NCBI GenBank assembly: GCA_051362555.1
Contig: CM120645.1
Coordinates: forward strand, 15,686,001-15,750,000
DNA length: 64,000 nt
Source: Lingula anatina
Taxonomy: Eukaryota; Animalia; Brachiopoda
Reading direction: 5' to 3'
The translations under genes were made by a program, and so were the position numbers. Below the pieces are notes generated by a model. That model worked only from the letters and a program-made list of their open reading frames with translations. It did no database searches and was not told the origin of the DNA. Positions 42 through 60,100 of this stretch are shown one piece after another; within the stretch, counting starts at the first letter, position 1, and each line of letters starts with the position of its first letter.

Positions 42-1120
42 GTGCTGCAGAATAAGTCTCTATATTTCGGCAATGTCCAGTCAAATAGTTTGATATTTTG
101 CAGACTGTTAGCTTATCTTACGGTATGTGAACTAACGGCAGCAACTTGCCACACTATTGTTGCATTATGCCAGAATGGACTGAAGCAGACTGCTATTGCC
201 AAACAACTGCATGTGTCCCAGGGTGCAGTTTCTAACGTCTTACAAAAACACGCCCAGACTGGTACATTAACACAGAGACCACGGCCAGGACGTCCTAAAG
301 TCACCACCAGAAGGGTAGACCGCACATATGCTTCTGCGGTTATGTCGCAACAACCGGACAAAGACAACTCTTGCTGTAAAAAATGAGTGGCAAATTACCA
401 TTCAAAAGTATGTTTCTAGAACTCTAGTGAATGCAAGGCTACTTTTAGTTGGCTACCTCTATTAACAGAGCAACACCAACATCTGCGTCTGGGGTGGGCT
501 AGACACCATTTGCGGTTCCAGGCACAGCACTGGGTTCATGTTGATTTTTACAGATGAGGCAGGGTTTGAGTTCCACCACCGTGATGGCTAAATCAGTCAG
601 TAGGCTTCCAGACGAGTTACTGCACGAGGATTGTGTCACACTAGTGACTTGTGGCCGTGGCAGTATCTGTGTATGGGCCGGTTTCCACACTGGAGCCAAA
701 ACACTATTGGTGGCAATTGATGGAAACCTCAACCAGATAAAATAAAAGGACATTTTAGAGAATACTTGCTTGCAATTTGCAAGAAGGTGCTTCCAGGACA
801 ACTTCATCCTGCAAGATGACAATGCCCGACCACATGTACACCGTGCCCATGCAATGGCTGCTTTTCTGCAAAACCAAGAGGTAAACCAGTTGCCTTGGCT
901 GACGGAATTCCCCTGACATGAATTCTATAGAAAACCTGTGGGCATAAATCGCTAGCAGAATCAACAGCTAACCCGTCCAGCCTACAAATCGGCACAAGCT
1001 TAGGCAAGCTCTGACTAATGCGTGTAACACAATACTGGATCAAACTCTCAGAAACCTCTCTGCATGGATCCCTGGCCGAGTGAGGGCTCTGGTTGCAGCT
1101 AGAAGAGGCTGCATGCGTTC
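42..1120 (+). pseudogene. Decayed Tc1/mariner-family transposase (frameshifts and stops)
   Basis: N-terminal HTH-like IAKQLHVSQGAVSNVL...RPRPGRPKVTT; catalytic-domain fragments GRGSICVWAGF, FILQDDNARPH (about 823-853) and LPW..SPDMNSIENLW (about 890-942) spread over different frames. Confidence 0.85.
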
Positions 1121-5302: not shown

Positions 5303-8300
5303 ATGAAGATCACAAGTACCATGCTCGTTTGTGTTGTTTTGATGATGGCGAAACTTTGTGCAGTCGGCGATGCTCGTAAGTACTAAACTTATCGTTTTAG
5401 CTGGATCGATCCAACTTTGCAGGAGATTTTCTCTAAGTGTTGGGGGTGGTCGGCTCATGCCCTAGTTAGATTCCACTTTACCAAAATAACACGATTCAGA
5501 GCTGGGCCTCCGAAGACGTGTGTTTTGACAGCGCCCCTTGCAGAGTTGAGGGCGGCTTTTAGAGTGTGTTAGGCTTCTCGCCTTTATTATGAGGAAAGAT
5601 CGTTTCTGATAGGTAGGTAGATAGGTGTCTTGTCTACCTAGTATGAGATTTATATATATATATAGGGTGCCCTGAAAAGGTCATTCCGTGATTGGTACGA
5701 TAGAGGCGTGTCGCCTGTTGAGGGAAGGGGGAGGGTGCACTAGTTGCAGATAGCAATATTTTCCATCTACAGTTCTCCGCTCTACCAACTGAGCTATCGC
5801 GAGTCGACCGCCGACTCTTGAGCCATTCATACCGTCCAGCTCGTATCCCATTTGTTGTGGAGGAGAACTCCTCAACAGGATAAAGCATCTTAGACTGAAC
5901 GGAGACACCTTTGCTGACCGCCTCCGTCCCTAAATGTTTTTTTTTTATCTCGGACTCTGCAGCTGATGAAAGTCACTTGTTGACCGAAAAGCGATTTCTG
6001 CAACCAGTCCACCCTCCCCCTTCCCTCAACAGGCGAGACGCCTCTATCGTACCAATCACGAAAAGCCCTTTTCAGGGCACCCTATATATATATATATATA
6101 TATCGGTATCTATAAATCTCATACTAGGTAGACGAGACACCTATCTACCTACCTATCAGAAACGATCTTTCCTCATAATAAAGGCAAGAAGCCTATCACA
6201 CTCTAAGGGTGCTTTCCCAGAGATTTAGATCGATCTAAAGATTAAGTTTTAGATCGACCTAACTCCTAAGGGGTTCACGCTAAATTGCAGTCAGCCGAGA
6301 GGGCACCATAGTTAATTACCCCCTTACAGCTTTTAGTAGGCGGGACAGACGTTTAAGCCGGCCAAGCTGACAGTAATCTAGTGAGACTCCCCGCAGGGAT
6401 AGATCGACCTACAAATCTATGGAAATGGGCTGTAAAAGCCGCTCTCAACTCTGCAAGGGGCGCTGTCAAAACACACGTCCTCGGAGGCCCAGCTCTGAAT
6501 CGTGTTATTTTGGTAAAGTGGAATCTAACTAGGGCATAAGCCGACCACCCCCATCACGTAAGTGCAATCACTGTTATTGGCTTAAATGCCAGACACAACT
6601 CTAGCTGCTAGGGGCTAATAAGCCGCGCGCACACGAAAGTGAATTATCCCCTAGCATCAAGGAATCGTGTCATACAATTAAACTGATTACACTATCAGCA
6701 ATTAAGCGGGGTTGGATCGATCCAGGTGGTACGATGTTTGAATCTTTATACATTGCTACAAGGTACTCATAGATTTAATATTAAGTACAGGGGCGATCCA
6801 GGATTATTTGATGGGGGGTCCGGAACGACAGGCCTCGGATGCGAAGCCGACCATCGCCCCCTTGGTGTGGGGTTTGGGGTCTGCTCAAGGGTCCTGTAAA
6901 CAGTGCCCTTTGGTACGGTTTAGAACTTAAAAAAAATGGCGTTTTAAACACTTTTATCTAAACACAGAAACTATATAACTTGTCTGCATCTATCCTTAAA
7001 AGTTCAGGTCTGTGTATTGCTTTGTGAAAGTTAAGTTTTCGCTGATTTATCTTTTTTCCTTTTCAACATGAAATGTTTTTCACTGTTCTGGTTCTCACCC
7101 AAGGGTTTCATTCTTTTAATCACCTAATCGATAATTTTCATATTTTTCACTGCAGCTCTGATGATAGAATCCCATTTCCATTGTTCATCTGGCATGCTGT
7201 TGTGTAAAAGTCATTTATTCATTCACTACAGAACCATGTGTTACATTACTAAGAAAATCACCCAGCCCTTCGGGCTTATAAGACGCTTAATGTACATAAC
7301 CGTTCTTGTCATTTATGATATATTGTGGCTATATATTTTGCGAGTACATTTTTGCTTTTTTTTTTCCTTCAGAGGCAGCGGGATGTTGTAAGTAGAACAT
7401 CAAACTTCGTATATTATGATCTACAGTTTGTTTCCAATCTATAGAGAGAAATCACACTGGTTTTATCATTTTTAAAGAAAGCGTTACAGCAATGAATTAT
7501 AGTTCACTTATCACGTTATAGGCTCTTTCAAAGTGCATAGCAAACAGGAAAACTTCATATTGTGAAATGTTGTGTATTTTGGTGTCGAAATAAAGATTTT
7601 TACTCAAATAAATCAAAATCTATTTAAAATGCATGCATTTTCAAAGTATCTCATCCTTTTTTAATTTTTCAGCTCAACTTCCACAACGGTGCTGTGAGTA
7701 TGGTATTGCATTAAGCGAGAAGTAAATTTAAATCTCAGTTATTTTCTGTCTGACAAGCTTTTATTTTATTCCATTAGATTGCATTTCAGTTATAAGGTAT
7801 GGAAATGCATGTTTTCCCGTGCTACAGTATTTATATCAGTAAAGACCGCAATCATTAAGTGGCATTAGGAGCCTCACAGATATAATGGTCATATCCTCGG
7901 GTTCATCTTCAATAAGCATACATAAAGTGTATTAAAAAAAACAGATAAAATGATGTAACATTATGCAGCTTGACATGTAAAAGGGATGAAGCTTATTTTG
8001 TGCTTTCCTTCTTTTTTGCAGCATATCCGTTAATTTTGCGACCGTTTTGAAAGTAAATTAAACAGTATGTTTTCACTTCCAGCGTACATTCAGGAAATCG
8101 AGTGTGACGGCACAACTCACTCGTTCTCCGGCAGCTATCATCCCACGGATGCGGATCTGACATCGCTGCGATACTCCATCACTTCCTATGGCAATAGGAA
8201 CATCGTTGTATCCACTTGCAACACCGCCGACTTCGACACACAACTGGCTCTTTTTGAGTGTTCTGCGTTAGTTCAAGTTGAATCAGCTTGGAATGGGACA

Positions 8301-8468
8301 TGCGGCAAATACATCCGGGACAGTCTGTACCACAATGACGACGCCACCGGGTGCGACATGACCTCTAAACTCATGATCCGTCCAATCCAGATAGAAAGTG
8401 GGACGTACATAATAGGTGTGGGCGCGTATAGTGTTGGCGGGGACTTTAACGTCACCATCTCTTGTTAG
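5303..8468 (+). CDS. Secreted cysteine-rich protein A (164 aa): signal peptide, two micro-exons and a PPC-like beta-sandwich domain
   Basis: Exons 5303-5375 (MKITSTMLVCVVLMMAKLCAVGDA, donor gtaagt), 7373-7387, 7673-7693 (donor gtgagt) and 8083-8468; all GT-AG and phase 1; 495 nt open to TAG; AATAAA at about 8488 and 8669; splice sites conserved in paralogue B. Confidence 0.75.
5767..5803 (-). pseudogene. 5' half of tRNA-Tyr(GTA), truncated
   Basis: Reverse complement ctcgcgatagctcagttggtagagcggagaactgtag has the A-box/D-arm and the anticodon loop CTGTAG; followed by intron-like atggaaaatattgct; no T-arm or B-box. Confidence 0.75.
5958..6002 (+). ncRNA. Minimal type I hammerhead ribozyme (Penelope-type)
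   Basis: tgcag-CTGATGA-a-agtca cttgt tgacc-GAAA-a gcga t-TT-ctgca: stem I tgcag/ctgca, stem II gtca/tgac, very short stem III; one A.C mismatch at the base of stem II. Confidence 0.65.
6207..6432. mobile_element. PIF/Harbinger-type MITE nested in the right inverted arm
   Basis: TAA duplication (6204-6206, 6433-6435); the left arm shows the empty site; same family as 4828-5051. Confidence 0.8.
6788..6927 (+). mobile_element. Partial MITE of the caggggcggatccagg family
   Basis: Matches the 5' part of 10396-10671. Confidence 0.55.
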
Positions 8469-18219: not shown

Positions 18220-18714
18220 ATGAAGATGACTAGACCCATGCTCGTTTGTGTTGTTTTGATGATGGTGACACTTTGTGCAGTCGGCGGTGCTCGTAAGTGC
18301 TAAACTTATCGTATACTAGCTGGTTCGATCCAGGAGATTTTCTCTAAGGTCGGGTTCCCATGCTTAGATCGATTCATCTAAACCCCCATCTTTTCAGCTC
18401 TACTGGTTTAGGTGAAGATAGCTAAAATAACAAACGTACAGACAGCCGGACGGAAGGGAGGGATAACAGGATCCCAGACTTTGTAACAAAAAAAAAAAAA
18501 TAGATAGATAGAATTTTAAAATATAACTCCAGGGAATGATTTTTGAGTTTGTTACACACAACTGTAAGCCTGTAAGCATTTTCCACCGTTGAAAGCCAAT
18601 AAAACGACACGGTTTCCTTGAATACATGAGACAAAGCCAGTGGCGTGTCGGGTTGAGGATGACAACGTGGCTTTCACCCCGAACGGTGTTTGGTATTTAC
18701 TGTAATACCTTTGC

Positions 18715-18757
<43 letters not shown>

Positions 18758-20697
18758 TCTTCGCTGAAGTCCATCACGCTAATTATTAGCAGTTTGTTAT
18801 TCATTTCGAAGACGCGTGTGTATATACAGTATCTTCTTTTTTATTTCAAGCAATGGACGATAAACCACCGGTGTGCGGGAATAATACACTATGCTGTAGG
18901 GTGGACAAAGAGAACGTGACTCGCTGCAAGAATATTCCCAGTGAAAAGGGTCAAGGTATATTAGCTTGTCCTTGGCCTTGGTCTTGTATTTGTGAGGAGG
19001 GATACGTGTTGGACCCGTATGTTGAGGATTCCGAAACTTGTGTTCCAGGTGAGAATGGCAAAGACTGCTGTAATGTGCATAATGATAAACATGTAAAAAA
19101 AGATGAGTCTTATACAGTTTAATCTAAACACGCTTTAATCTAAACACAGAAACTTACTTGTCTGCATCTATCTTTTAAAAGTTCAGGTTTGTGTATTGGT
19201 TTGTGAAAGTTAAGTTTTCGCTGATTTCTCTTTTTTCGTTTAGTGATTCAACATGAAACATTTTCCACTGTTCTGGTTTTTACCCAAGGGTTTAATTCTT
19301 GTATTCACCTAATCGATAATTATCATAGAATGTTTTCACTGCAGCTCTGATGATAGAAACCCCAATTCCATTGTTCATCTGGCATACTGTTGTGTAAAAT
19401 TTATTCATTCATTCATTAGAGAACCATGTGTTACATTGCTAAGAAAATCACCCAGCCCTTCGGGCTTCTAAGACACTTTTAAGTACATTAAAATGTACAT
19501 AACCGTTCTTGTCATATATGATATATTGTGGCTGTTTATTTTGCAAGTATATCTTTGTTTTATTTTTTCCTCAGAGGTACCGGGATGTCGTAAGTATAAA
19601 ACTTAGAAAATTATGACTTACATCAAACTTAGTAAATTATTATCTACAGTTTGTTTCCAATCTATAGATAGAAATCACACTGGTTTTATCATTTTTAAAG
19701 AAAGCGTTACAGCAATGAATTATAGTTCACATTTCACGTCATAGGCTCTTTCAAAATGCATAGCAAACAGGAAAACTTCATATAGTGAAATATTTTTTGG
19801 TGTATTTTGGTGTCGAAATAAAGATTTTTACTCAACTAAATCAAAATCTATTTAAAACGATGCATTTTCAAAGTATCTCATCTTTTTAATTTTTCAGCTG
19901 AAATTACAGAACAGTGCCGTGAGTATGGTATTGCATTAAGCGAGAAGGAAATTTAAATCTCAGTTATTTTCTATCTGACAAGCTTTTATTTTATTCCATT
20001 AGTTTGCATTTCAGTTATAAGGTATGGAAATGCATGTTTTCCCGTGCAACAGTATTTACATCAGTAAAGACCGCAATTAGTAAGTGGCATTAGGAGCCTC
20101 ACAGATATAATGGTCATATCCTCGGGTGCATCTTTAATAAGCATACATAAAGTGTATGAAAACAAACAGATAAAAATGATGTAACATTATGCAGCTTGAC
20201 ATGTAAAGGGGATGCAGCTTATTTTGTGCTTTCCTTCTTTTTTGCAGCATATCCGTTAATTTTGCGACCAATTTGAATGTAAATTAAAAAGTATGTTTTC
20301 GCTTCCAGCGTACATTCAGCAAGTCGTGTGTGACGGCACAAATTACTCGTTTTCCGGTAGCTATCAATACGTGGTAGAGGATCTGGCATCGCTGCGATAC
20401 TCCATCACTTACTATGGCAATAGGAACATCGTTGTATCCACTTGCAACGCCGCCGACTACGACACACAGCTGGCTATTTTTGACTGTGCTGCGTTAGCCT
20501 ATGTTGAACCAGCTGCGAATGGGACATGCGGCATTGCCGAGGAGTACAGTTTGTACGACAATGACGACGGTAGGGGGTGCGGCCTCACCTCTCTACTCCA
20601 GATCCCTGAAGGCGAGCTAGCCAGTGGGACGTACATAATAGGTGTGTTCGGGTATCGTAGCAAAGAAGGGAACTTTATAGTCACTATCTCTTGTTAG
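18220..20697 (+). CDS. Secreted cysteine-rich protein B (231 aa): signal peptide, EGF/TIL-like domain, two micro-exons and a PPC-like domain
   Basis: Exons 18220-18292 (MKMTRPMLVCVVLMMVTLCAVGGA), 18851-19048 (VCGNNTLCC...SCICEEGYVLDP...TCVP), 19575-19589, 19898-19918 and 20309-20697; all GT-AG and phase 1; 696 nt open; AATAAA at about 20888. Confidence 0.8.
18713..18756. repeat. (ATT)n microsatellite at the end of a probable interspersed repeat
   Basis: Direct reading. Confidence 0.9.
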
Positions 20698-31200: not shown

Positions 31201-34200
31201 CCTATTAGACTCTTACCACAAGTCCCGCCTGTTCTAGACTTGCTACAGTGACCGTCTTGGCCTCTCCACTGGAGGCTGACATGTACACTTTGAATGGAGA
31301 GTCAGGGATGTGCTCATCATTAAACTTGATAGACACCATGTATTCACCTGAAACAGATGGAATTTTTTTTTCATTTTGTTTCTGTATTCTTTTTTTTTCA
31401 GAATATTTTTTTTTTTGTTCACAATAAACATCCTGAAGATTTAAATTTTTTTGAAGAAAGTATAAATCATAAGAAGTACTTTCATCTGTAATTGGCAGCA
31501 CATATAATTGTTAGTACATTTTTAAATTCAAAAATTGAAAAAACTTACTTATTCATACAACAAAAATGAGCCTGCATGTAGATATATTACATAAAGCTTC
31601 TCACTTCTTCCAATCCTCACTTTTGTCAAACTCAAATGTAAAACACAAGTCCATACATCAAATCATCCATGTACTTTAGAGCTTATAGTTAATGCACAAC
31701 AATGTCGTACCAGGTTCTGTGCACTCGTAGGACACTCCACACGACCCGTCCTTGCGGTCTGCAAAGTCAATCTCTGCCTTGGATGGTCCTTCAATTGCAA
31801 TCGACAGACCTCCAGCACCTGCCTCACGTGTGTAGATGTTGAATTCGCCTGAAATAGACGTAATAAATGTTTTCAGTTAAACTTTTAAAATACGTACCGT
31901 GCTCAACATTTTGGGGGTACTTTACTACATCTGATTACCCTTTTCCTTCTTTATTTTGCATGAATGAAAAAAGAACGGTTTTATAATCAACATTTTCAGT
32001 TAGGTAATAGTTCAAAATACAATTAGATTGCCTTTAATCATTTACAGCAATATTCTGACAGTTAAAATTAAGTGAAACATGTTTATTTCTTTAATTTACT
32101 CATCACATTTCAAATATCAAATTATTTGCATTGAAACATAGGTATGATGCCATACAAAGATGTGATAATATATAATTATAATACTTACATTTCTCGTTGA
32201 CCTCTCCCTTCTCCAAGCCAGGGCCAGCAGCATGAACCTTGTGTGAGCCGCCTTCTGTGATAGGACCAACTGTGAACTGGAATGGGCTGCCTATTTTGGG
32301 GAAAGGAGAGGAGAAACAATGTAAGTGAGAAAAACACGCCCCTCTTATTCCCCTATATAAATGGACTTTAAAATGTACTAGTTTTACAAATGAATATTTC
32401 AATATGTTGCATGATGTATAACTTTAAAATAACACATTCATTCTGCTTCTCACTCTTAGAAACACTGGGATCATATATATAACAAATTCACATTAAAAAC
32501 AAAGATCCATCAAAATACATGCAAACAGAATGCAAAAATATACCGGCTAGAGTATACATAACTATAATTGCAAATTGACTGAGTGAGCTTTCTTACTAAC
32601 CAGGTATATGCATATCTTTGTGTTTCACGCTAACAGTATGGACTCCCATTTCCTTGGGGATAAACTTGATGCTATAGTGGCAGTCGTCCAAGTCGATGAT
32701 TTCACACAACTCGGTCACTCCAGATGGACTGGTCACTGAGGCATTCATGTCCACAGGGCTGGAGCCTACAATTACAGTACAATAACATGACAATGTGATG
32801 GTACAAAACTATGTGTGAAGATACAATTACTGTACAATACCATGGCAATGTGATGGTACAAAACTATGTGTGAAGATACAATTACTGTACAATAACATGA
32901 CAATGTGATGGTACAAAACTATGTGTGAAGATACAATTACTGTACAATAACATGACAATGTGATGGTACAAAACTATGTGTGAAGATACAATTACTGTAC
33001 AATAACATGACAATGTGATGGTACAAAACTATGTGTGAAGATACAATTACAGTACAATAACATGACAATGTGACAGAACAAAAGAGTGTGAAAAGATACA
33101 ATTACAGTACAATAACATCATTATGTGATGGTACAAATGTGTGTGAAGATAAAATTACAGTACAAAAGCAATACAGTTAATTTTTTTTATAATAATCAAA
33201 TTACACATATACATCCATATTGAAGTATGAACTTCAATAAATTAACAGATTTCAATTTATTCTTGTCAAAGATGTTGTCTCCATTCTATCATGTTGCCAC
33301 AGATTATGCAACTGTTCAAGATTTAAGGTCACTTTACACTAACTCCTCATAGGAAATCTTAATCAAACTTGTCCTAAATTTTAGCCAAGCTCTGATCTTT
33401 ACCTGGGATCTTAAGGCTAAGTTCACACTGGCTCCCGACATGTGTGACATCCACGGCCTGCGCCTGGCGCATGATCTTCTCCACCAGCTTGTCTGATGGC
33501 TCTCCGCGGATCTTGACAGCAAATGGACTGCCTGAAAGCAGAGACAGGGTCAAGGTCACACAAAGCCCTTTATATAGGTCAGGGTCATCCTCCCAAGGTG
33601 AAGGTCATAGAGGCAAACTTAAAAGGCCACATAAGTATGTTGTAAACTTAAATCCTAATTATCTGTATAAAATGGAATAAAAACAAGAAATATGCATACA
33701 TCTCTCTGAAATTATTTTATCTTCAAACCTATGGTTTACTTATAATATGACAAATATGTCTTATCTTAACCATAATGTGCTTAAATATAGAGGCACATTC
33801 ATTCATATATCCAATAATATCTTCATCTATTACTTATTATTATTAATCTTTTTTACAGCATGCCATCTAAAAAAGTCACAAATTTTAGTGTCCATCCCAG
33901 TTGAAAATATTGAACTCGAAGAATAGAATTTTCACCCATAAGAAAAATAAAAGAACTGATTAAATTAAGACTGAAAAAAATCACTTCCTGAATGAGGCCC
34001 TGATTTGATTGTAACTGTTTGTGCTACCATTTGTACATGCATTCTAAAAGAAATGTCTGTGCTGTTAATATAAAATGTGGGTACAGAACTGGACCAAATC
34101 TGTTCAGGATTTAAAAAGGACTGCAATGCATTTATAATCAGCTTGTTTTTGTTATGAAGTTAACTTGGGTTGTTCGTTGGGGTGGCTCACATCAAAGGTC

Positions 34201-48100: not shown

Positions 48101-51100
48101 TCGCCTTTCTCTTGGGGAGTAAATGAGATTCCTGGAAAATAGAAAACAGGGTCAATCTGTCAAATATTTTGAATTTTTGTTTGTTTGTCTCTCTTTCGCT
48201 TTTTTTTCGCAAATAGGAGTGGCTGCATCAACACATACATGCCCATCCCAGTCAAAGTGTTGAATATTTTACCTTCATTTTGCATTGTAATTTGAAAAAA
48301 AAAAAAATTAGTAAAACATGTCTTCAACAACCCGGAACATCTGGGACTCCTCTATGTTGACTGTGGGGTCAAAGTGGTACTTATTTTTACAAGGCTGCTT
48401 TCTGCAAAATTTGAAAATTAATTTATAAGGACAAGGCGTCAAATATTTTTAGGCTCTCTTTTTTGCCAAGTTTTTGTGATTTTCTTTCACCTTCAAGAAA
48501 ATCAGTAAAATATGTATTCAAAGATCTTCAACAGATGCAAGTGATTGATCATTTTGCATTTGAAAGTGACATTATCAAGTCATTAGTTTCAGCAAATTAG
48601 TTTCAGAGGAAAAAATATGCCTGGGGTATGTTAAGGTCTGATAAAATAACCGATAACAAATGAAACAGCAGCAAATAATTATTACTCCCAAAATGCTGGA
48701 ATTTCAAACATAATCCATACTCAGGTAAGATTAACACACACGTCTGTAAGCAAAGAAACTGGAGGTGAGGTAGTTTTGCTTCAGAAACAGGTCAGGTTTG
48801 GCCAGATCAGACATGGTTGGGCTAGGCACAATCTCTGAGCTCAACTAACGCAATCTCAACCTGACACATTTTAACCTTCCAATGAAATTTGATTTTGATG
48901 ACACAAAACATTTTCATGTGTACACCGCTTCCCCAGTATAATTCTTCTTTCATTTCATAGCATTAAGCCTAAAAAAGGATCTATTCGCTCAAACAGATCA
49001 GCATGAAATGAAATCTCAGAACAATACAATGCAGAATGCCTCAATGAATATCTCATCTAGTTATATTCAACAGCAAATAGTTGTTTTTGCATAAGTCAGT
49101 ACAGATATAGTGGGACAAAACATTTCCTCTTACTTCTTATTTATCTTTGAAGGAAATTACCCCACTAATTCTTACCAAGATGTCCATTGGGCAGTCTCTT
49201 GAGGATACAGGGCTGCTCTTTCCCAGATGGACTAATAATATTGGCTGTGAGAGTGGAGATGTCCACGTCCTTGATGTCCAGGGAGATGTCACTGCTGGTA
49301 CCTACGGACACCTGCGACTTCTTCTTGCCCTCTCCTAGAACATACAATATGGTGGGTTGAAATACAAATTCCGTTTGGTGGCAAAAGTGGTATGAGAACA
49401 AGTGCAACTCTGACCGATAAGACTTTCACAATGTTTTTTTTTTTTTTTTGCTTTAATTGAAAACCTTTATTATCATACTAGTATGATAGAAATCCATTTC
49501 TGTTTGCTACCTTGAGCACAAAATATTAATTATACTGAAAATTATACATCTGATATGTTTCAACAATACTATTTCTACTTCATGGATGGAAAAAAGTTAC
49601 ATACTGCAATAACAAGGGGGGAATAAGAAAAATTAACACTAATGACAACAATATAAGACTGACCACAAGTAGCCACGATCAACAGACAAATTCTGACAAA
49701 GACACACAGCCTTAATAACAGCATTAAGGTTTAAACATACAATAATATCCAACAACATTACAAACACCTGAACCCAACAATCTCAACATACAAACATACA
49801 AACAAACAAACATCCATCCATACAAACATCCATCTTTCCACCTCACAAATGATAATGCAACACATCACTGAATCACTGTTGAAACATACAAAGAATAAAT
49901 ACTTACATATTTGTGTGTCCATCTACCAAAGCATTGATAAAAAATACAATAGTATGTAAAACAGCAGAGAAAGAGAAGATTTATTCAGAAGAATTGAGTT
50001 AAAATACAAGAAGAAATATTTATTCAGGAGAAACAATGCAATGGAAGAGAAGGAAGCCCTCTGATATAGCATTCATAACTATTCAGATTTGAAAGTAACA
50101 CATCTAATTATCAGTGAGTTTCTGAAGCTTTTGCTTGAACTATTCAAGTAGAGAAAGAGAGAGAAGCCTATTATAAAGTTTTTAACAATGGCTACTATTA
50201 ATCACAAATGGCCCATAAGAGCATTCATACAAAAGCCAAAAATTTTGCATACTAAGCATTAACATGCTCTTTAAAACTTCTGCAGTTAAATAACAATACA
50301 TTATTTACAAGGAGCACAACTTCAACTCCTGTATCTTTTGATATGGAATGAAAGAGAAAGTAGAAAGATAAAAGATCTAAAATTTAAAAAATCACGTTCA
50401 AATACACCTACGGAAAAAAGCAGTTTTCAGTGAGAAAAAAAAGCCGGAAAATGCACGAGTCTGTTTCAGATACTGGTTACCTGCAGGGGCTCCCTGGGTG
50501 GGTCTTGTTCGTCTACGTCTTGGCTCTCTTTTCCGAGCCTCACCCACTGGCACCATTTTCTCCCCTTCTGAGCCTCTCTGTGGCCCTGCTTCATCTCCCG
50601 GGTAATACCCATCAGGAGATTCAGGGGGAAACTTCCCCCCATCTTTATATTGAGCCGCAACTGGCACCCTCTCCCCTTCAGTGCCTCTCTGTGGTTCCAC
50701 ATTATCCCCAGGGTAATATCTATACACAAAAGGGGTATCTTGGGGTAACCTAACCCCACTCCCATGAGGAGGTTGTTCACTTTCCCCCTCCTGGCCATCT
50801 CCAGGCACTGACCCTACTGGACGGTCATATAAGTAGGTGGACACTGGCTGGCCACTGGGTATGGGTGATGGAGACCGGTCACGTGCTGATGGCATGACAA
50901 TGAACTTGACTGGGTCTCTCTGCTCCCATTTACCCTCTTTGGGTTCAGCTGGGGATGGAGTAGTATCAGACACAGGGACTGTATATCTCACTGGGATGCT
51001 ATTGTCCCCCTGAGGGCCTGAATCTGGCTTTTCAACCCTGGGGGTCCCGTGACTGCTTCTTGGTTTAGCAGACTCTGGGGCACTCTTTCCTGGTTTATCT

Positions 51101-54100
51101 TGCTCAGGAGTGATATCTTGGTAAATGACATTAGGTTTCTGTGGAGTTGGAAATTTATCATCTTTATCTGGTTTGTCACCCTGTTTTCTGTCTTGTCTAG
51201 TTCTTGGCTCTTTGGACTCAGGAGTGACATCTTGGTATGTGATGATGGCTCTCTGTGGGGTTGGAAATTCATCACTGCCTGCTGCTTTATCTTCACCTGG
51301 TCTGTGTTGCCTTCCTTCTCTATCGCCCTCTGGTGTTCTGTCTTCACCTGGCCTACGACGCCTTCTCTCTCTGTCACCCTCTGGTGTTCTGTCATCTTCG
51401 GGTCTATCAAGCCTTCCCTCTCTGTCGCCTTCTGGTGTTCTATCTTCTGGCCTACGACGCCTTCCCTCTCTGTCACCCTCTGGTGTTCTGTCATCTTCCA
51501 GTCTGAGATGCCTTCCCTCTCTGTCGCCTTCTGGTGTTCTATCTTCTGGTCTACGACGCCTTCCCTTTCTGTCAACCTCTTGTGCTTTATTTTCAGGTCT
51601 ATGCAGCCTTCCCTCTCTGTTGTCCTCTAGTGTTCTGTCCTCTCCTGGTCTGTGACGCCTTCCCTCTTTGGCATCTGAAGGTTGTGCAGAAGGTTGTGGC
51701 TGTTTTCTTGCTGAAGGTAATTCATATGCTGTCATAGCCCTCTGTGGGACTGGAAATTCCTCATCAAATCCCTTTTTAGTAGGACTAGAGTCAGGCACCT
51801 TATCTGGCCTTCCCTCATAACTCTGCTTTGCTCGCTGAGGCCTTGGGAAGCTCTGTTCACAAATATAGGGGGCGACACTGTAGCCAACAGGTTCAGATTC
51901 TGCACTGCCTGGAAATGATGTGCTTTGTGGATTTTTATGTAGATACTTGTCTTCATTCACTGGGATTTTCTTATCCATTTGGATGTTTCCCTCCCTTGGT
52001 CTTTTAGGTTCTGGGCTGACACCTTGGTACAAAACAGTTACTTTCTGAGGAGTTGGAAATTCATCATCTCTGTTGTCTGGCCCTTGTCGATCATCCTGGG
52101 GCCTTCCTTGTTGGTCTCTAGGCCTTCTAGGTTCTGGGGTTACATCTTGGTACACCAGAGTCACTTTTTGAGGAGTTGGTAATTCATTATCTCTGTTGTC
52201 TGGTCTTTGCTTTTCATCCTGGGGCCTTCCTTGTTGGTCTCTAGGCCTTCTAGGTTCTGGGGTTACATCTTGGTACACCAGAGTCACTTTTTGAGGAGTT
52301 GGTAATTCATTATCTCTGTTGTCTGGTCTTTGCTTTTCATCCTGGGGCCTTCCTTGTTGTTCTCTAGGCCTTCTAGGTTCTGGGGTTACATCTTGGTACA
52401 AAACAGTTACTTTTTGAGGAGTTGGAAATTCATCATCTCTTTTGTCTGGTCTTTTTCTATCATCCTGGGGCCTTCCTTGTTGGTCTCTAGGCCTTCTAGG
52501 TTCTGGGCTGACATCTTGGTACAAGTCGGTAACTTTCTGGGGAGTTGAAAATTCATCATCTCTGTCATCTGGTCTTTTTCTATCATCCTGGGGCCTTCCT
52601 TGTTGGTCTCTAGGCCTTCTAGGTTCTGGGCTGACATCTTGGTACAAAACAGTTACTTTTTGAGGAGTTGGAAATTCATCTCTGTCATCTGGTCTTTTTC
52701 TACCATCCTGGGGCCTTCCGTGTTGGTCTCTTGGCCTTCTAGCAGGCTCTGGGCTGACATCTTGGTACAAGACGGTAACTTTTTGAGGAGTTGGAAATTC
52801 GTCATCTCTGTTGTCTGGCCCTTGTCTATCATCCTGGGGCTTTCCTTGTTGTTCTCTAGGCCTTCTAGGTTCTGGGGTTACATCTTGGTACAAAACGGTT
52901 ACTTTTTGAGGAGTTGGAAATTCATCATCTCTTTTGTCTGGCCTTTGTCTATCATCCTGGGGCCTTCCTTGTTGGTCTCTAGGCCTTCTAGGTTCTGGGG
53001 TTACATCTTGGTACACCACAGTAATTTCCTCGGGTTTTGGAAATTCACCTCCTCGTCCAGGTCTGTCATTCTGGGGCCTTCCATGTTGATCTCTTGGTTT
53101 TCTAGGTTCTGGAGATACATCTTGGTACAACACAGAGACATTATCGGAAGTTGGAAAGTCATCATCTGGTCTAGGTCTGTCACCATGAGATGGTTTTTGC
53201 CTTTCATCCTGGGGTCTCCTTTGCTGGTCTCTTTGCCTATTAGGTTCCGGGGTTATATCTTGGTACAGGACAGTAACTTTCTGAGGAGTTGGAAACATAT
53301 CATTGTCTGTGCCTGGTCTTTTTGCTGGGTAACTGTTTCCCTTGCCATATTGTTTGTCACCTGGTATACCTGCTTCAGGGGTCATGTCTTGATATGAAAC
53401 AGTAGCTTTCTGAGGGGTTGGAAACTTGTTTTCCCCACCAGTTGGTGGCCTGAAACCACGTGATTCACCTTTCCTGTCTCTGGGTTTCCTGGGCTCTGGA
53501 GTCACATCTTGATATAGGACACTAGCTTTCTGAGGGATTGGAAAAGCATCATCCCCAAAGCCTGGGCTGTCTGTGTAGGGACTTTCTGGCCTTTTTCTCG
53601 GAAGTTCAGGAGTCACATCTTGGTAAAAAATAGCTGCTTTCTGTGGCGTTGGAAATTCATCATCATTCTCTGGACTTCTTTTACCCTTACTAGGACGTCC
53701 TTGTGGTCTACTACGTTTGCCATCCTGTCTATGTTGTGGTAAATATTCCTCCCCTGGGCCTAGTCTATCAGCAGGAAATCTTTCTGGCCCTCTGCCAGGT
53801 GGTTCAGAGATGAAAATTTGGTTTGTGACAGTAGCTACCTGTGGTGTTGAAAAATCATCATCCTTTTCTGGCTTTCCCTTCCCATAAGCTCTGTCATCTT
53901 GTGGTCTTACCTGTCCAACATCTCGTCTGTCGATCTGGGTGCTCGATTCTGGGGTAATATCCTGATACAGTACAGCAGCTTCTCGAGGAATAGGAAACTC
54001 ATCATCTTCTTCACTACCTGGGGTATATTTATGAGGTCTCTTCACCTGGTGTCTGCCTTGTTCATCAACATTTGGAGTAGTATATTGATATGTGACAAAT

Positions 54101-57100
54101 GGTTTTTGTGACGTAGGATATTCCTCATTGCCAGCATCTGGCTTTCGACCCTGGGGTCTGCTTTCTTTTCCCATTGGTTTACCAGACTCTGGGGTGAAAT
54201 CCCGATATGCGATAGTAGCTTTTTGTGGGGTTGGAAACCTATCATCATCAGAGCCAACTCCTTTATCCACAGGTATGCGTTGTTTCACTCTGGTATTTTG
54301 AGGCTCTGGAGTAACAACTTGATATATTATATTTGCTCTCTGTGGTGCAGGAAACTCATTTTCACCATCCCCTGGTCTTTTGTCCTGGGGTTTATACTGT
54401 CTGTCCCCTAGTCTTTTTCTCTCTGGGGTAATATCTTGATACATGACATTTGCTCTCTGTGGCATTGGGAACTCATCATCATCTTTTACTCTTCTGTCTA
54501 CTACAGGGATGTCACTTTGAGGGCCCTGTGGTGTGCCCTTCTCTTTGTCTAATGTTCTAGGCTCTGGGACCATATCTATATATGAAACCATGTGTTTCTG
54601 TGGTACTGGGGACTCAACATACTCATTCAGTTCAGGCTTTTTCTGATAACCAGGTTCTCTATCCCCAGGGATATATTTTCGATCCCTTGGGATTCCACTC
54701 TCAGGGGTGACAACTTCATTCTTCACATTAGCCTTCTGTGGTGCTGGTGACTCATCATCACCATCAGTGCCAGGGCGTGGCCTGTCACCCTGTGGTTTCC
54801 TAGGTGTGTCCTGTGGTTTTAATGGTAAAGCTGAAGCCACCACAATCACCTGCTGGGGTTCTAACACCTCACCCCCTGGTGGGATGAAACTCTGTTCTTT
54901 TCTATCTTTAGGTGTAGGCATTCCCTTACCTTTCTGGCCAGGAACCTGTCCAATACCTTCATATACTCTAGGCTGCCTGACAAGCTTTGGTACTGCTTTT
55001 CCTGGGCCTCTGGGTTTTGCCTTCATATTTGGGCCACTGATGTTCCCAGGCTGGGGCCCAGGTTTTCTATCAACAGGCCCAGAATATGGATGTCCATCAG
55101 GATAATCCTCTTGGTGAATTATATGTACAGGCTGAGATTCAGGTTTTCTATCAGTAGGACCAGAATAAGGATGACCAGCAGGACTCATATCTTGATAAAC
55201 GATGTTCACTGCCTGAGGCCCAGGTCTTTTATCAGTAGGGCGAAAATGTGGATATCTATCTGGGCTCATATCTTGGTGAATGATATTGACCACTTGGGGT
55301 TCAATTTTTCTATCATAAGGAGAAGCACTAGGTATGTCACGTTTTCTACTTTTCTGTGTGATTTCCTGGGGTCTGTTTCTCTCAGTTATATCAGGAACTC
55401 CAACCACCTGTTCCCCAGGGTGTGACCTATCCCTAGGGGTGGGGTGGCCAGGTCTGCCATCTTGGTGAATGATCCGAATTTCCTGTGGCACTGACTGGGG
55501 TGCTTCTTCTGAGGAAATGGGTTCACCTGGAAAGGTCGCCAGCGAAATAACTTGTGGCACCTGTCCCTCCAATTTTGGGGATGGGCGCTGATAATCATGG
55601 TCTTCTTTTGGCCTACCAGTACCTTTAACTGGCTCATCTGGTTCAAAGGAAGCAATTAACCTTTGTGGAGTGGGAAATTCATCATCAAAGGGTGGCACAG
55701 GCTGACCTGCCCTTTGGTCGGGTTTTTGTCTTCCCTTCTCTGGCTGGGGAGGTTTCACTTCACTTTTAAATGACTGTGCAGGAATCTCCATTGACTTAGT
55801 GCTAATTGGAACATCTGGGTGGCCAGAGTATGGTATCCAGTCATAGTCTGGGGCACCTGATCCTGGAGAAACAGTACTGGGGCTTTTGGTATCTGGTTTT
55901 CTTGATGCTGGAGATTCTAAACCACTTTTTGGTTTCTTCAACGGTTGCTGTGCTTTTTTAGGGATGTCACAATGACGAGTTAAGGAAGCCTGTTGGGGTT
56001 CTGGAAAATCACTCTCAAACCCTGGTTTATCAGAACCCAATTGGATTTTCTGTGGGACGGGTAAACTCTCTTCATGCACAAAAGGTTCCACACAAAATCT
56101 CATTGGTTCTGATTCTTTAAGCATTTCAGGTTTACCTTTCAAATCCTTTTCTATGACATTTGGAGGCTGCTTGGTCTCTTGTTGTTTGTCAGGAGGTTGC
56201 TGGCCAGACTTACTGGCATCAGGTTTCTTTTTACCAGGTTCAGCAGGGACCCATTGGGCTTTTTGTGGGGAAGGAAATATTTCATCCTCAGCAATGGGCT
56301 TCATGTTAATCAGCAGGGGCTCTTGTACTTTAACACCATCAACACCTTTGGTATCTGTTTTTGGGGGTACCTCAGTGCCTGCAGGGGTTGGACCCGGAGA
56401 CTTAGAGAATACAGGTATCAAGTTTGGCTGATCTGGTTTACCAGGAGGGGTCGGATACAAACCAGGCCCATCTTCAAAATCAATTGGCACAATTTGAAAT
56501 TTGAGTGTTTCTGGTGGACGTTTTGGGAAACTGGAGAGTGAATCAGAAATGTTAGTTGTATATGTCTTCCGCGTCTCGGTGATTTTTTGTATGATCTGTG
56601 AGGACGGCAATGACATACGCCTCTCCACTAGTCTGACTGGGATATTCACATCAAATATATCCTGGCCTTGACTATAGGGGGCAGCAGTAGTACTATCACG
56701 CTGTAAAGGAAGAGTGTAGTACCTCTCTTGAACATTTTCTGAAAGTGATGTTTGCAAATTTGAAGTTGGACCAGTTTTAAATACCCCTGGTGAAGTAGAC
56801 TGCCCAATGGGTAAAACATAGAAACTTCTCCCTAAATTTTGAACTTGGGGTGGACTTGTGCCCTGTGTCACAGTTCTGCGTACCCTGCGAGTCGTGGTTT
56901 TAGTCCTTTTGGTCTGAGTTCCAGTATCGGGATTGTACTCTATGGAGCAAGTTTGGGTTTCCTCCACAGGGTGACTATTTCCATCAGCCAGGTGCTCCGT
57001 ATGAAAGCGCTGAATTTCTGAAGACGGGAGAGAGTATCTCCGCAGAAAATGCCTCTGTGTTCTGTTCTCTGTGACATATCTTCTTGTGGTCGTAGAAGAC

Positions 57101-60100
57101 TCTCTGACTGTAGTTGTTGTGGTTTTCACAGATGCCATGATGTGAACTGTTTCCTATAAAAGCTGTCTGATGTTTCTCTTTTCTATATTATTAAGAAGTG
57201 TTGCAAAAAAGTCAAAAAAATTACCACAAGTACAAATTGTACATTGCCTGTCTGCCCAGTCTGTTATGCTGATAGAGTCTAACTCTCATAAGGCTACCAA
57301 TGCTGAACATGAAAAGCCTCCTCTTTAACACGAATAAGTACAAGTAAACATTGTAGCTGTATAGAGCAGGGTTATCTCCAGCAAAAACCCCAGCATTCCT
57401 GTCTGTATAACTGAGAGATACTGTTGCCAGTGCGGCTCAAAGAAAGTTCTACTTCATCGTCTTCCTCTCACACAAGACTAAATCACCTTGTATTTATGTG
57501 GGCTGAGGGAGTCACTCTCTGTTTAAGCCTGAGCCAGAAATACATACTTCAACAAGCTCCAGGAATTCAAAGGTTAAACTAAAAAACGGCTCAAAACACC
57601 ATCTCCAAGTTTAGGCAAAATTACACTTCAATGATGACTCAGGCTAACATTCCCTGGAGAAACTGCGAAGATTTAAGTCGTTAGATGCTAGAACTGACAA
57701 GATATTCTCAAGTCTCGGGTTTTTTCGTGATGCAATTTATAGATCACTGTAATTAACTGTGCCATGGATTTCCCTTGATTACATGTTCAGATGCTGCGTA
57801 TTTTTAGAGAGTGAGCCGAGAATCCTGCGGTGAACTGGCTAGGAGTATCTTCACCTGGAAATGTCATGGCTTGTTTAACAGAAGGTGGGGGGAAGTTAAG
57901 GGGAGAATTGCCTCCTCAGACCTTTTCTATCTCAGCAAGAACATCCCCATCCCCGCCGGATCCACTTTGTTTGAGCACTTAGTAAAATGACAGCTACGCT
58001 TATAATGTAGTACATTATGACGTTAAATATAAGATGAATCAAATAAAAGGGAGACAACTTCTAGAATCTACCTGGCAGTTCCAGCAAAGAATCAATCAGT
58101 ACCTGTAGGACTTGAGCCAAAGCTGTAGCATTCTTGGAATTCCTACCAGGTAAGTCTGTGGGATGAGTTTAAGCACATAATTCAAAATAATATCATTCCC
58201 AAGTAGGTGGTTAATGTATCTGTGGGGTACAAAATAACACCTCTTGAGACATTCGCCAACACCTACTAACGTAAGTTTTACAGTAAATTATCATTCTAAG
58301 TGTTTAATAGCTTTACAAACACCCAGTTGGAAATGCTAGGCAAGGTACATTTGTTTTCATTAAACTGTAATATTACTCTTATGTATCAGCAGCATACTTT
58401 TCAAAAATGAACCTAGGGTCAACTGCTGTTTATCATTACACTTATTTTTCTACTGGGTGAATTCTTGCAAATGACGATTCCTCTAAGAGCAATTATGAAA
58501 TTTCAATACAAAATATGCTTTTAGAAAACCTGTCATGCTAAGTGTTTTTTCGCTGATCACAACCTCAATGCTTTAGCAATTTAAAAACACAACACTGGGT
58601 TTTAAATAACTTTATTTTCAATTAAAAACCTGACACAAGTTACAAAAACGTAGAGGGGAGAAACTTCAAAACACCGTTAAGCACTGATGCAAAGATGAAC
58701 AGAAGAGGCTACATCTGGATACTGCAAGACTTGTACAGGAAAAGAGCTACAAGAAAAAACGCTGTTGGTTTTGAATGCTCCACCCATGGTCTGAAGGCAG
58801 ATGATGATTTATAGAGAGCACCGTATGACCCATCACTCCATGCTGGTAGTCTGTAGCTAATAGGCTTATTCATTCATATAGCATTACTCAATGCTTCAGC
58901 ATGAATGATAAACTACAGTGCCTTCAAAAAGGATGTAAAATTTTGTCATCTTTTTAGTCTTTTTTCATGTTCTTTTGCTGTTAGAAAAATATGGCATGTA
59001 ATAGATAATTTGTTAAATTTTATCTTATAAACCAGAGGTATTTGAGGCCTGTATGTTATAAAACAAAAATACAGTTCATTATAAAAACAAAAACAAAGCA
59101 ATATTGATTCTAATAAATAATAAATTCTGTATGTGCTGCTTCAGATTTTTCCTTATTTTCTTTTTCTAAGTTCTGATGGATACCAAGTATTTCCTTTTCC
59201 CTTTCGTTTCATTACAACAAAATGGGTGCTAATGAATAAATAAACCAACAAATACTGTATGTGCTATTTATTCAATTATAGATTATTTTCCTACTTTCAG
59301 GTAAGATTGGATGTACTTGGATATCAAGTACAAATGGCTTGAAAATACATCTGCATGTCTATCAAAGGTTAAGCATCAATTTCTAACTTCAATTTATATA
59401 GTTTTTTCCATGTACTGATCCTATTGAGATATTTACAAAAAAACAGTATTCTGAATTAACATGGACAAGGAAAAAACTAATAATGAGACTGACAAAAATA
59501 ATCTGAAAGATATATCTGCCACTGTAGTCTAAAACAACGCTGATTCAGACAGATAAAATTCATTAGTCTAGCATTTAAATAAAAAAACTGCCAATAAAAC
59601 AGTGTAATGAGCAAATGCCAGCAAGATGATATATTGAAATATAATGAAAGATGCAGAAATATAGAAAACCAGGTACAAAAGTCAAATATACACATATGAA
59701 ACACATACTGCTATACCACACTCCTTCACAGACACACATATCATACAAATATACCTGTGTGCTATAGTGTTTTGCTATTTATTATCATAATATAAATCAG
59801 TCTAGCACAAATATATCAGAAACACCAACCAAATATATGTGTAGCACAAAGACTTTAACAAAAAGCATGCCGGGTCTAAGATGAATACATTTCAGGTGAT
59901 TTGCTCACATTCATAGCACACAGTAAAACATGGGGTGTATATTTATGACATGTAACCTATACAAATAAAATGCATCTATCACCTACCTGCTGCAAGGGTG
60001 ATCCAGAAATATATACCATGACAAAGATCTCATACGTATACATACCCACATACAGCTATGTAATTATACAAGCTGGCACCATTTTTACCATTCTATTCAT

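Follow-up and report, generated by a model that had tools for sequence, protein, structure and literature searches.

A microbial PPC-like domain family in predicted secreted proteins of the brachiopod Lingula anatina

The window analysed here, a stretch of 64,000 nt from Lingula anatina contig CM120645.1 (coordinates refer to it and to its + strand unless stated), holds two tandem genes, LOC106172232 (copy 1) and LOC106172231 (copy 2), whose predicted secreted proteins end in the same domain. It is practically certain that this domain is homologous to a cysteine-bearing microbial family of PPC-like (pre-peptidase C-terminal) domains with the motif TC..FDT..NDD..C..S, and at least five Lingula loci carry it. 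For the case as a whole, we lean towards a horizontally gained, non-enzymatic secreted binding module, which would be stabilized by Ca2+ and disulfides and whose variable surface would be under diversifying selection. With this, five Lingula proteins listed as ‘uncharacterized’ gain a predicted fold, a family and a testable mechanism. A first-pass annotation, made from the letters alone, had read the last exon of copy 1 as a PPC-type module of bacterial or protist kind, laterally acquired and fused to an animal signal exon and an EGF/TIL module.

Gene structure and microbial relatives of the domain

Four exons of the window reproduce the 164-aa RefSeq protein of copy 1 (P0001), with GT donors and all joins in phase 1. 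The first coding exon (5303–5375) matches the start of P0001 and encodes a predicted signal peptide of 24 residues, called by eye from the hydrophobic stretch, up to a phase-1 donor. Two micro-exons with one Cys each follow, of 15 nt (7373–7387, AG/GT ends) and 21 nt (7673–7693), and the terminal exon (8083–8468) supplies the PPC-like domain (127 aa from 8085), a predicted jelly-roll. This exon is preceded by a pyrimidine tract and a phase-1 AG acceptor, stays open to a TAG at its end, and its translation is 100% identical to the end of P0001. The entire pattern on which the first-pass annotation was built lies uninterrupted within it (VSTCNTADFDTQLALFEC, C73, NDD, GC, TS.L and GTYIIGV..Y...G.F.VTISC).

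Splicing is visible in RNA. Run X14 shows the joint 7693>8083 (GT..AG) in 2 reads and run X2 in one contig at depth 149; because this contig spans a spliced joint, X2 is probably RNA. At the loose end of the same contig, the 3′ end of the first exon is joined directly to the 15-nt micro-exon, giving a spliced path (one contig) from the signal exon through 7373–7387 to 7673; the RNA evidence for the first exon (5303–5375) is its 3′ end in this contig. Expression is uneven: three raw RNA runs, with about 10 million records read, gave reads numbering 4, 2 and 0, and the X2 contig reaches a depth of 150–440. The terminal exon is present in 10 runs from four studies, in a run search that listed none of them as RNA. 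It is real, spliced, expressed and integrated in the animal genome.

Sequence databases of known domains say little about this exon. No Pfam family matches copy 1, copy 2, P0001 or P0002 at E up to 10, in keeping with the earlier remark that this is not a familiar animal domain, and the PPC family PF04151 (gathering cut-off 25.9 bits) does not match the paralogues P0014 and P0015 at E 0.01. Word-based homologue searches with a single sequence returned Lingula matches only; with alignment A2, there were 13 matches, three from Lingula and ten without organism names. Parkin rows (E 0.5–1) in the single-domain sequence searches of Pfam and PDB were set aside as chance, and these searches yielded nothing real. 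The sole PDB sequence match of the family profile is 2luw (E 0.31).

The microbial relatives emerged from a DNA motif scan of GTDB genomes, which found at least 124 loci, with the pattern out of frame in a few. Among the matches listed, 80 titles are mostly from Planctomycetota and also from Flavobacteriales, myxobacteria, other deltaproteobacteria and Solirubrobacterales. A total of 132 in-frame domains came from 110 of the 124 loci, and removal of L082 and three duplicates left 128 for a bacteria-only hidden Markov model (HMM); L037 and L051, with apparent frameshifts, were excluded ahead of alignment A2. Against this Lingula-free model, three Lingula domains score 46 (copy 1), 49 and 37 bits, while 1000 shuffles of each that kept the motif reach at most 19.4, 19.7 and 14.5 bits and none of the other frames (1248 in the window) exceeds 10.5 bits. 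Conservation also extends to columns outside the selected motif that Lingula shares with the bacterial rows, namely C73 (83%), C90 (94%), S94 (97%), Y108 (83%) and G119 (98%).

A search free of motif selection led to the same family. A Lingula-only profile of three sequences, run against 1.84 billion representative proteins, gave 80 matches (4 from Lingula and 76 others), and 71 of the 76 carry the same domain at more than 25 bits to the bacterial HMM, the named ones being bacteria and protists as had been foreseen. The remaining five were rejected: P0029, P0040, P0041 and P0063 are profile matches in which the domain is missing, and P0073, a scallop mucin, is a repeat-summed match with neither motif nor domain. 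By features, the top ESM Atlas matches (0.96 and 0.95) are clusters with PPC in 12% and 39% of members; the top clusters bear PPC and GBD_T9SS and are bacterial where taxa are recorded. By structure, the paralogue P0015 likewise retrieves bacterial clusters bearing PPC or GBD_T9SS, at TM 0.65–0.71.

Two observations tell against the homology. Identity to microbial domains is only 19–37%, and with eight motif residues masked the three Lingula domains fall to 8.0, 14.5 and 8.5 bits, so that copy 1 (8.0) lies below its best shuffle (16.0) and only copy 2 is clear (14.5 against 6.0). The low identity is also what speaks for contamination or a chance likeness, but the gene is spliced and intron-bearing, sits beside filamin, and recurs in four studies and at five loci; shuffle controls, Atlas and predicted fold all agree, and RNA joints and paralogues contradict both ideas, which retain hardly any probability.

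Within the PPC world, the relationship is one of kinship rather than membership. When 15 domains of the bacterial relatives were compared with PF04151, seven matched, all below the cut-off, and P0036, P0066 and P0083 exceed it on the whole protein. For NF038127 (DVUA0089, curated cut-off 29 bits), P0002 reaches 15.8 bits (E 0.014), below the cut-off, P0001 and P0003 do not match, and 19 of 129 alignment rows do. The Lingula domain works like PPC, yet is outside PF04151 by score and context. The microbial family is itself large and without its own Pfam model, and none of the 15 tested domains reaches a Pfam cut-off.

Predicted fold and origin

The AlphaFold model of the copy 1 domain is a beta-sandwich (pLDDT 81.5), and the PPC-like beta-sandwich of the first-pass annotation is borne out by it: its neighbours are PPC-type domains, with the Lingula-only profile, the bacteria-only HMM and the Atlas in agreement. 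The best structural matches are PliG (Z 10.0), the ColG collagen-binding domain (9.9), PPC 5sv5 (9.9), Tk-SP (9.4) and DeCLIC NTD1 (8.8), with CorA also among the closest folds; this Z 8.8–10.0 group is tied within about 1, and the highest identity in it belongs to the DeCLIC domain (22%). Foldseek places an enterotoxin C-terminal domain first by E-value (E 7e-7, TM 0.46) and collagen-binding domains higher by TM-score. Weighing against a PPC-specific reading, the model was built with a family alignment of bacterial domains, and the fold also occurs in animal proteins of low identity (SIDT1, Z 9.2, 6%; calpain III, Z 8.3, 12%). A single-sequence model also placed 5sv5 first (Z 7.3). CUB is missing from the best 50 structural rows of the good model, and appears at Z 4.6–4.7 with a poor one. 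Among the matches listed, neither a best match to CUB or another animal domain nor a widespread metazoan family, the outcomes named beforehand as refuting, appeared.

All five Lingula paralogues keep six Cys, D51, T52, N84, D85, D86 and the strands of the core without change, and the domain has a helical insertion at about 60–72. From the invariant Cys, we infer disulfides. In DeCLIC NTD1, Ca2+ site 1 is formed by Asp76, the Pro77 carbonyl, Asp123 and Asp124, and a Ca2+ site in Tk-SP overlaps it (PMC12664993). By likeness to these acidic residues, D51, D85 and D86 probably form a Ca2+ site; the residues are invariant and the folds align, while the pairing with individual DeCLIC residues is our own, which counts against the assignment.

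The horizontal origin of the domain is likely, if unproven, and is claimed because of its distribution. Among the 80 profile matches from 1.84 billion representative proteins, no other animal has the domain, although the search covered no other brachiopod or phoronid genome and the sister phyla were not checked directly. Look-up of 27 of the 76 non-Lingula matches led to an organism or a eukaryote source for eight, of which three are bacteria, four are protist records and one is the scallop mucin, and the named carriers of the domain are Chitinophagales, Bacteroidota, Phycisphaerales, Breviolum, Picozoa, Cyanophora (P0054) and one EukProt record. With a five-sequence Lingula profile, the Lingula domains, which are in the profile, score 185–217 bits and the best outsider, a Bacteroidota T9SS protein, scores 54; the best single-domain outsiders are T9SS-tailed proteins at 54 and 50 bits, against 44 for the best protist-like rows. 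GTDB genomes and metagenome contigs gave no close relative by Lingula-specific patterns, which says only that no near donor is among them, and a plasmid search gave a single match at E 7.

In trees of 117 rows (quick) and 54 rows (careful), Lingula forms one clade (98; 99/86) on a long stem, and the eukaryote rows are scattered. In the careful tree, Lingula falls on the same side as Bacteroidota and dinoflagellate- or diatom-like rows (98/93). Uniting every eukaryote row and Lingula in a single clade is rejected (p-AU 0.0007, LG+G4), although the protists alone may cause this. The alignment, at about 120 columns, is too short to single out a donor.

Several points pull the other way. A group of Lingula with the protist rows P0036, P0083, P0059 and P0028 is not rejected (p-AU 0.40 and 0.78), and with P0054 included under LG+G4 it is 14.5 log units higher. 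Of the 27 look-ups, 19 gave no organism, and the other 49 matches were classed by eye from secretion tails and repeat architecture, by which none appeared to be animal. Of the lateral acquisition proposed in the first-pass annotation, the non-animal distribution stands within the proteins searched, while donor and transfer itself are not established.

Inheritance from a unicellular ancestor of animals, with loss in nearly all other animal lines, would give the domain an old eukaryotic origin instead. The domain occurs in protists of several supergroups, PPC is among the domains listed for Salpingoeca rosetta genes (preprint 10.1101/2020.06.28.176636; the main text of the journal version, PMC7971027, does not mention it), and the long Lingula stem and the unrejected protist grouping suit such a history. 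P0036, P0028 and P0083 are eukaryote-like membrane proteins with at least four tandem domain copies, two of them with NPxY-like tails; we take the single-pass P0036 and P0028 to be choanoflagellate-like in their tails and possibly receptors, which would also favour old inheritance. On the other side stand the absence of any other animal carrier among the 80 matches (the scallop mucin lacks the domain), the rejected all-eukaryote clade with its caveat, the bacterial rank of the best single-domain scores (only slightly ahead, at 54 against 44 bits) and the many independent losses needed. Old inheritance is rather improbable. Searches of the literature by gene and protein identifiers found no paper naming these genes, those on Lingula or brachiopod transfer, bacterial origin and PPC in eukaryotes or metazoa found nothing on this family, and the word ‘horizontal’ is missing from the main text of PMC4595640.

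The tandem copies and their surroundings

Copy 2 (18220–20697, P0003) lies 10 kb downstream of copy 1, also on the + strand. Its signal-peptide exon (18220–18292) and its micro-exons of 15 nt (19575–19589) and 21 nt (19898–19918), both with AG/GT ends, match P0003, and its terminal exon (20309–20697) carries the PPC-like domain by profile and alignment, 64% identical to that of copy 1 at the protein level. Copy 2 has one exon more (18851–19048, phase 1-1, eight Cys), which is EGF-like, although its EGF-type Pfam matches are weak and below cut-offs (cEGF, E 0.005). A single residue separates this exon from RefSeq P0003, which has G where the window has D. Of the animal modules named in the first-pass annotation, the predicted signal exon holds, whereas the EGF-like exon is, within the window, confined to copy 2 and has no TIL match in Pfam: copy 1 has no EGF exon or remnant, the only tblastn match in the window being 18853–19047. 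At the corresponding site in copy 1, a nested, transposon-like inverted-repeat insertion (5434–6560) occupies part of intron 1, with inverted matches in a self-blast between 5434–5564 and 6430–6560 (95%) and between 5559–5750 and 5997–6206 (87%).

Further loci with the domain are LOC106151705 (no EGF), LOC112042606 (two EGF-like repeats) and LOC106167485 (one), and in P0014 and P0015 the EGF-like module also lies N-terminal of the PPC-like domain. Because the most divergent Lingula members carry the EGF-like exon, the trees suggest that copy 1 lost it. P0001, P0002, P0003, P0014 and P0015 consist solely of signal, EGF-like, linker and PPC-like parts, with no peptidase. Models of LOC112042606 differ, P0014 having two and P0092 about seven near-identical EGF-like repeats; the difference may be variation or misassembly.

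Copies 1 and 2 align over 1.9 kb, and the differences between them are concentrated in the mature coding part. The mature-coding exons, micro-exons included, differ at 84 of 419 sites (20%) and the introns at 65 of 1053 (6%; Fisher p 5e-14), with 19/321 in the 3′ UTR, 7/73 in the signal exon and 16/113 in the 5′ flank. Among first and second codon positions, 56 of 254 are changed, and among four-fold sites 2 of 38, a count that leans low as it comes from codons with the first two bases alike only. Counting gives an omega of 1.6, and a pairwise maximum-likelihood codon model gives 2.1 (p 0.044 against 1). Changed residues lie mostly outside strands, in loops or the helical insertion (31 of 45), a mild bias given that strands make up 52 of the 127 residues. 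Diversifying (positive) selection on the mature part is quite likely on these counts, and since coding exons differ three times more than introns, they suggest selection for new binding targets. Against this, the omega test is marginal and comes from one pair, the four-fold count is biased as stated, and two or more positions are changed in 22 of the 127 codons, possibly through exchange with other paralogues, which could inflate the result.

The CpG-rich composition that the first-pass annotation saw in the terminal exon of copy 1 is there (observed/expected ratio 1.07 with 26 CpG; the window as a whole stands at 0.44, and 1.08 marks the 99th percentile of 386-base bins), but it is not special to the exon. 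In 2-kb bins, the ratio is 0.50–0.92 over 1–24 kb and 0.12–0.44 over 24–64 kb, and the introns of both copies stand at 0.63–0.77. We rejected CpG richness as a foreign sign, the entire 1–24 kb region being CpG-rich, introns included; the region may be an unmethylated one next to a methylated housekeeping gene. The fall at about 24 kb is over a filamin gene, whose exons are on the strand opposite to the two copies and whose low ratio would fit gene-body methylation. Between filamin-repeat exons at about 32.6 and 60.3 kb, a repetitive, highly charged open frame of 2251 codons (50401–57153, − strand) is probably a giant alternative exon of this gene. A 55-base tandem repeat of about seven copies (32767–33165) lies inside a filamin intron, and 130–1120 (+) was judged by eye to be a broken Tc1/mariner-like transposase relic.

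Function and comparison with known systems

In the favoured history, the domain would have entered once, long ago, as an exon without introns that came to lie behind signal and EGF-like exons of the animal, with every join in phase 1; duplication would have followed, with loss of the EGF-like exon in copy 1. In the protein, Ca2+ may be held by D51, D85 and D86, analogous to DeCLIC NTD1 site 1, and a conserved core would present variable loops that bind an outside ligand. Binding through the loops is inferred because PPC domains bind collagen and membranes without being catalytic, and they also swell collagen (PMC7426729). Given the rest, the likeliest ligand would be a microbial or other foreign surface or protein, a tentative assignment that would make recognition, inhibition or defence the task of the family. 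It is more speculative, and doubtful, that a brachiopod put a bacterial Ca-binding module behind its own signal and EGF-like exons and made of it small secreted recognition proteins with positively selected binding loops, an immune or inhibitor repertoire on a microbial scaffold found in no other animal.

The same origin could serve other ends, each distinctly improbable in our view. Gamete proteins of free spawners evolve fast, and a reproductive protein diversified by sperm–egg coevolution could well be small, predicted secreted and restricted in expression, as the uneven read counts suggest, with a mature part that changes fast; at least five loci with 0 to about seven EGF-like repeats, however, suit a recognition repertoire at least equally. 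Slightly less probable still is a calcium-binding shell or extracellular-matrix protein. The proteins are acidic (pI 4.05–4.77) with a putative Ca2+ site and EGF-like partners, the collagen binding of PPC domains would fit a matrix, and collagen and EGF proteins abound in the shell matrix of Lingula (PMC4595640). The excess amino-acid change would be unexpected for a plain structural protein, none of 14 no-homology shell proteins (Luo et al.) shares a family member’s length, a weak point as gene models differ, and a 2026 biomineral proteome supplement (PMC13425148) gave no accession or PPC match, where identifiers may differ.

If the binding module that we favour is right, this is likely a further instance in which an animal domesticated an extracellular module of microbes through exon shuffling. 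Conserved introns beside fast coding exons single the family out as a candidate for recognition or defence in brachiopods, a field in which, to our knowledge, little has been established. Marine invertebrates are already known to have gained secreted proteins horizontally, and the surprise is moderate unless the ligand proves microbial.

Among known systems, the closest in sequence is the microbial TC..FDT..NDD..C..S family itself (Planctomycetota, Bacteroidota T9SS cargo, Myxococcota, Solirubrobacterales and protists), with PF23759 (GBD_T9SS_assoc) and NF038127 (DVUA0089) as its neighbours. It shares end-to-end homology, motif and strand pattern with the Lingula domain. Unlike Lingula, where one copy follows a signal peptide with or without EGF-like repeats, it mostly occurs in several copies in long proteins, and the extra Cys59 and the insertion of Lingula are missing from 99% of bacterial rows. 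Bacterial PPC (PF04151; 5sv5, 2luw) and the clostridial collagen-binding domain (1nqd, 5iku) resemble it in the predicted jelly-roll (Z 9.4–9.9, rmsd 2.6–2.7 over 98–101 residues) and in being non-catalytic and C-terminal in secreted proteins, whereas Lingula has neither a PF04151 match nor a peptidase and adds six conserved Cys and the helical insertion.

DeCLIC NTD1 (6v4b) superposes with an rmsd of 2.6 over 99 residues (Z 8.8, 22% identity), and its Ca2+ site pattern resembles the D51-T52 and D85-D86 of Lingula in the pairing proposed here (PMC12664993), yet it is a lobe of a bacterial ion channel. The lysozyme inhibitor PliG (4dzg), top in VIA (Z 10.0), and the receptor-binding domain of the C. 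perfringens enterotoxin, top in Foldseek, use the same fold alone as a protein-binding module; at 9–15% identity and with no shared motif seen, the fold they share is no proof of shared function. The msp130 and centipede venom genes are like the Lingula family in their patchy distribution with microbial relatives (PMC11878542, PMC7864903), and snake venom proteases in a mature coding region less conserved than the UTR and signal region (PMC8078745). These domesticated microbial and venom genes belong to unrelated families, and nothing in the Lingula data suggests venom.

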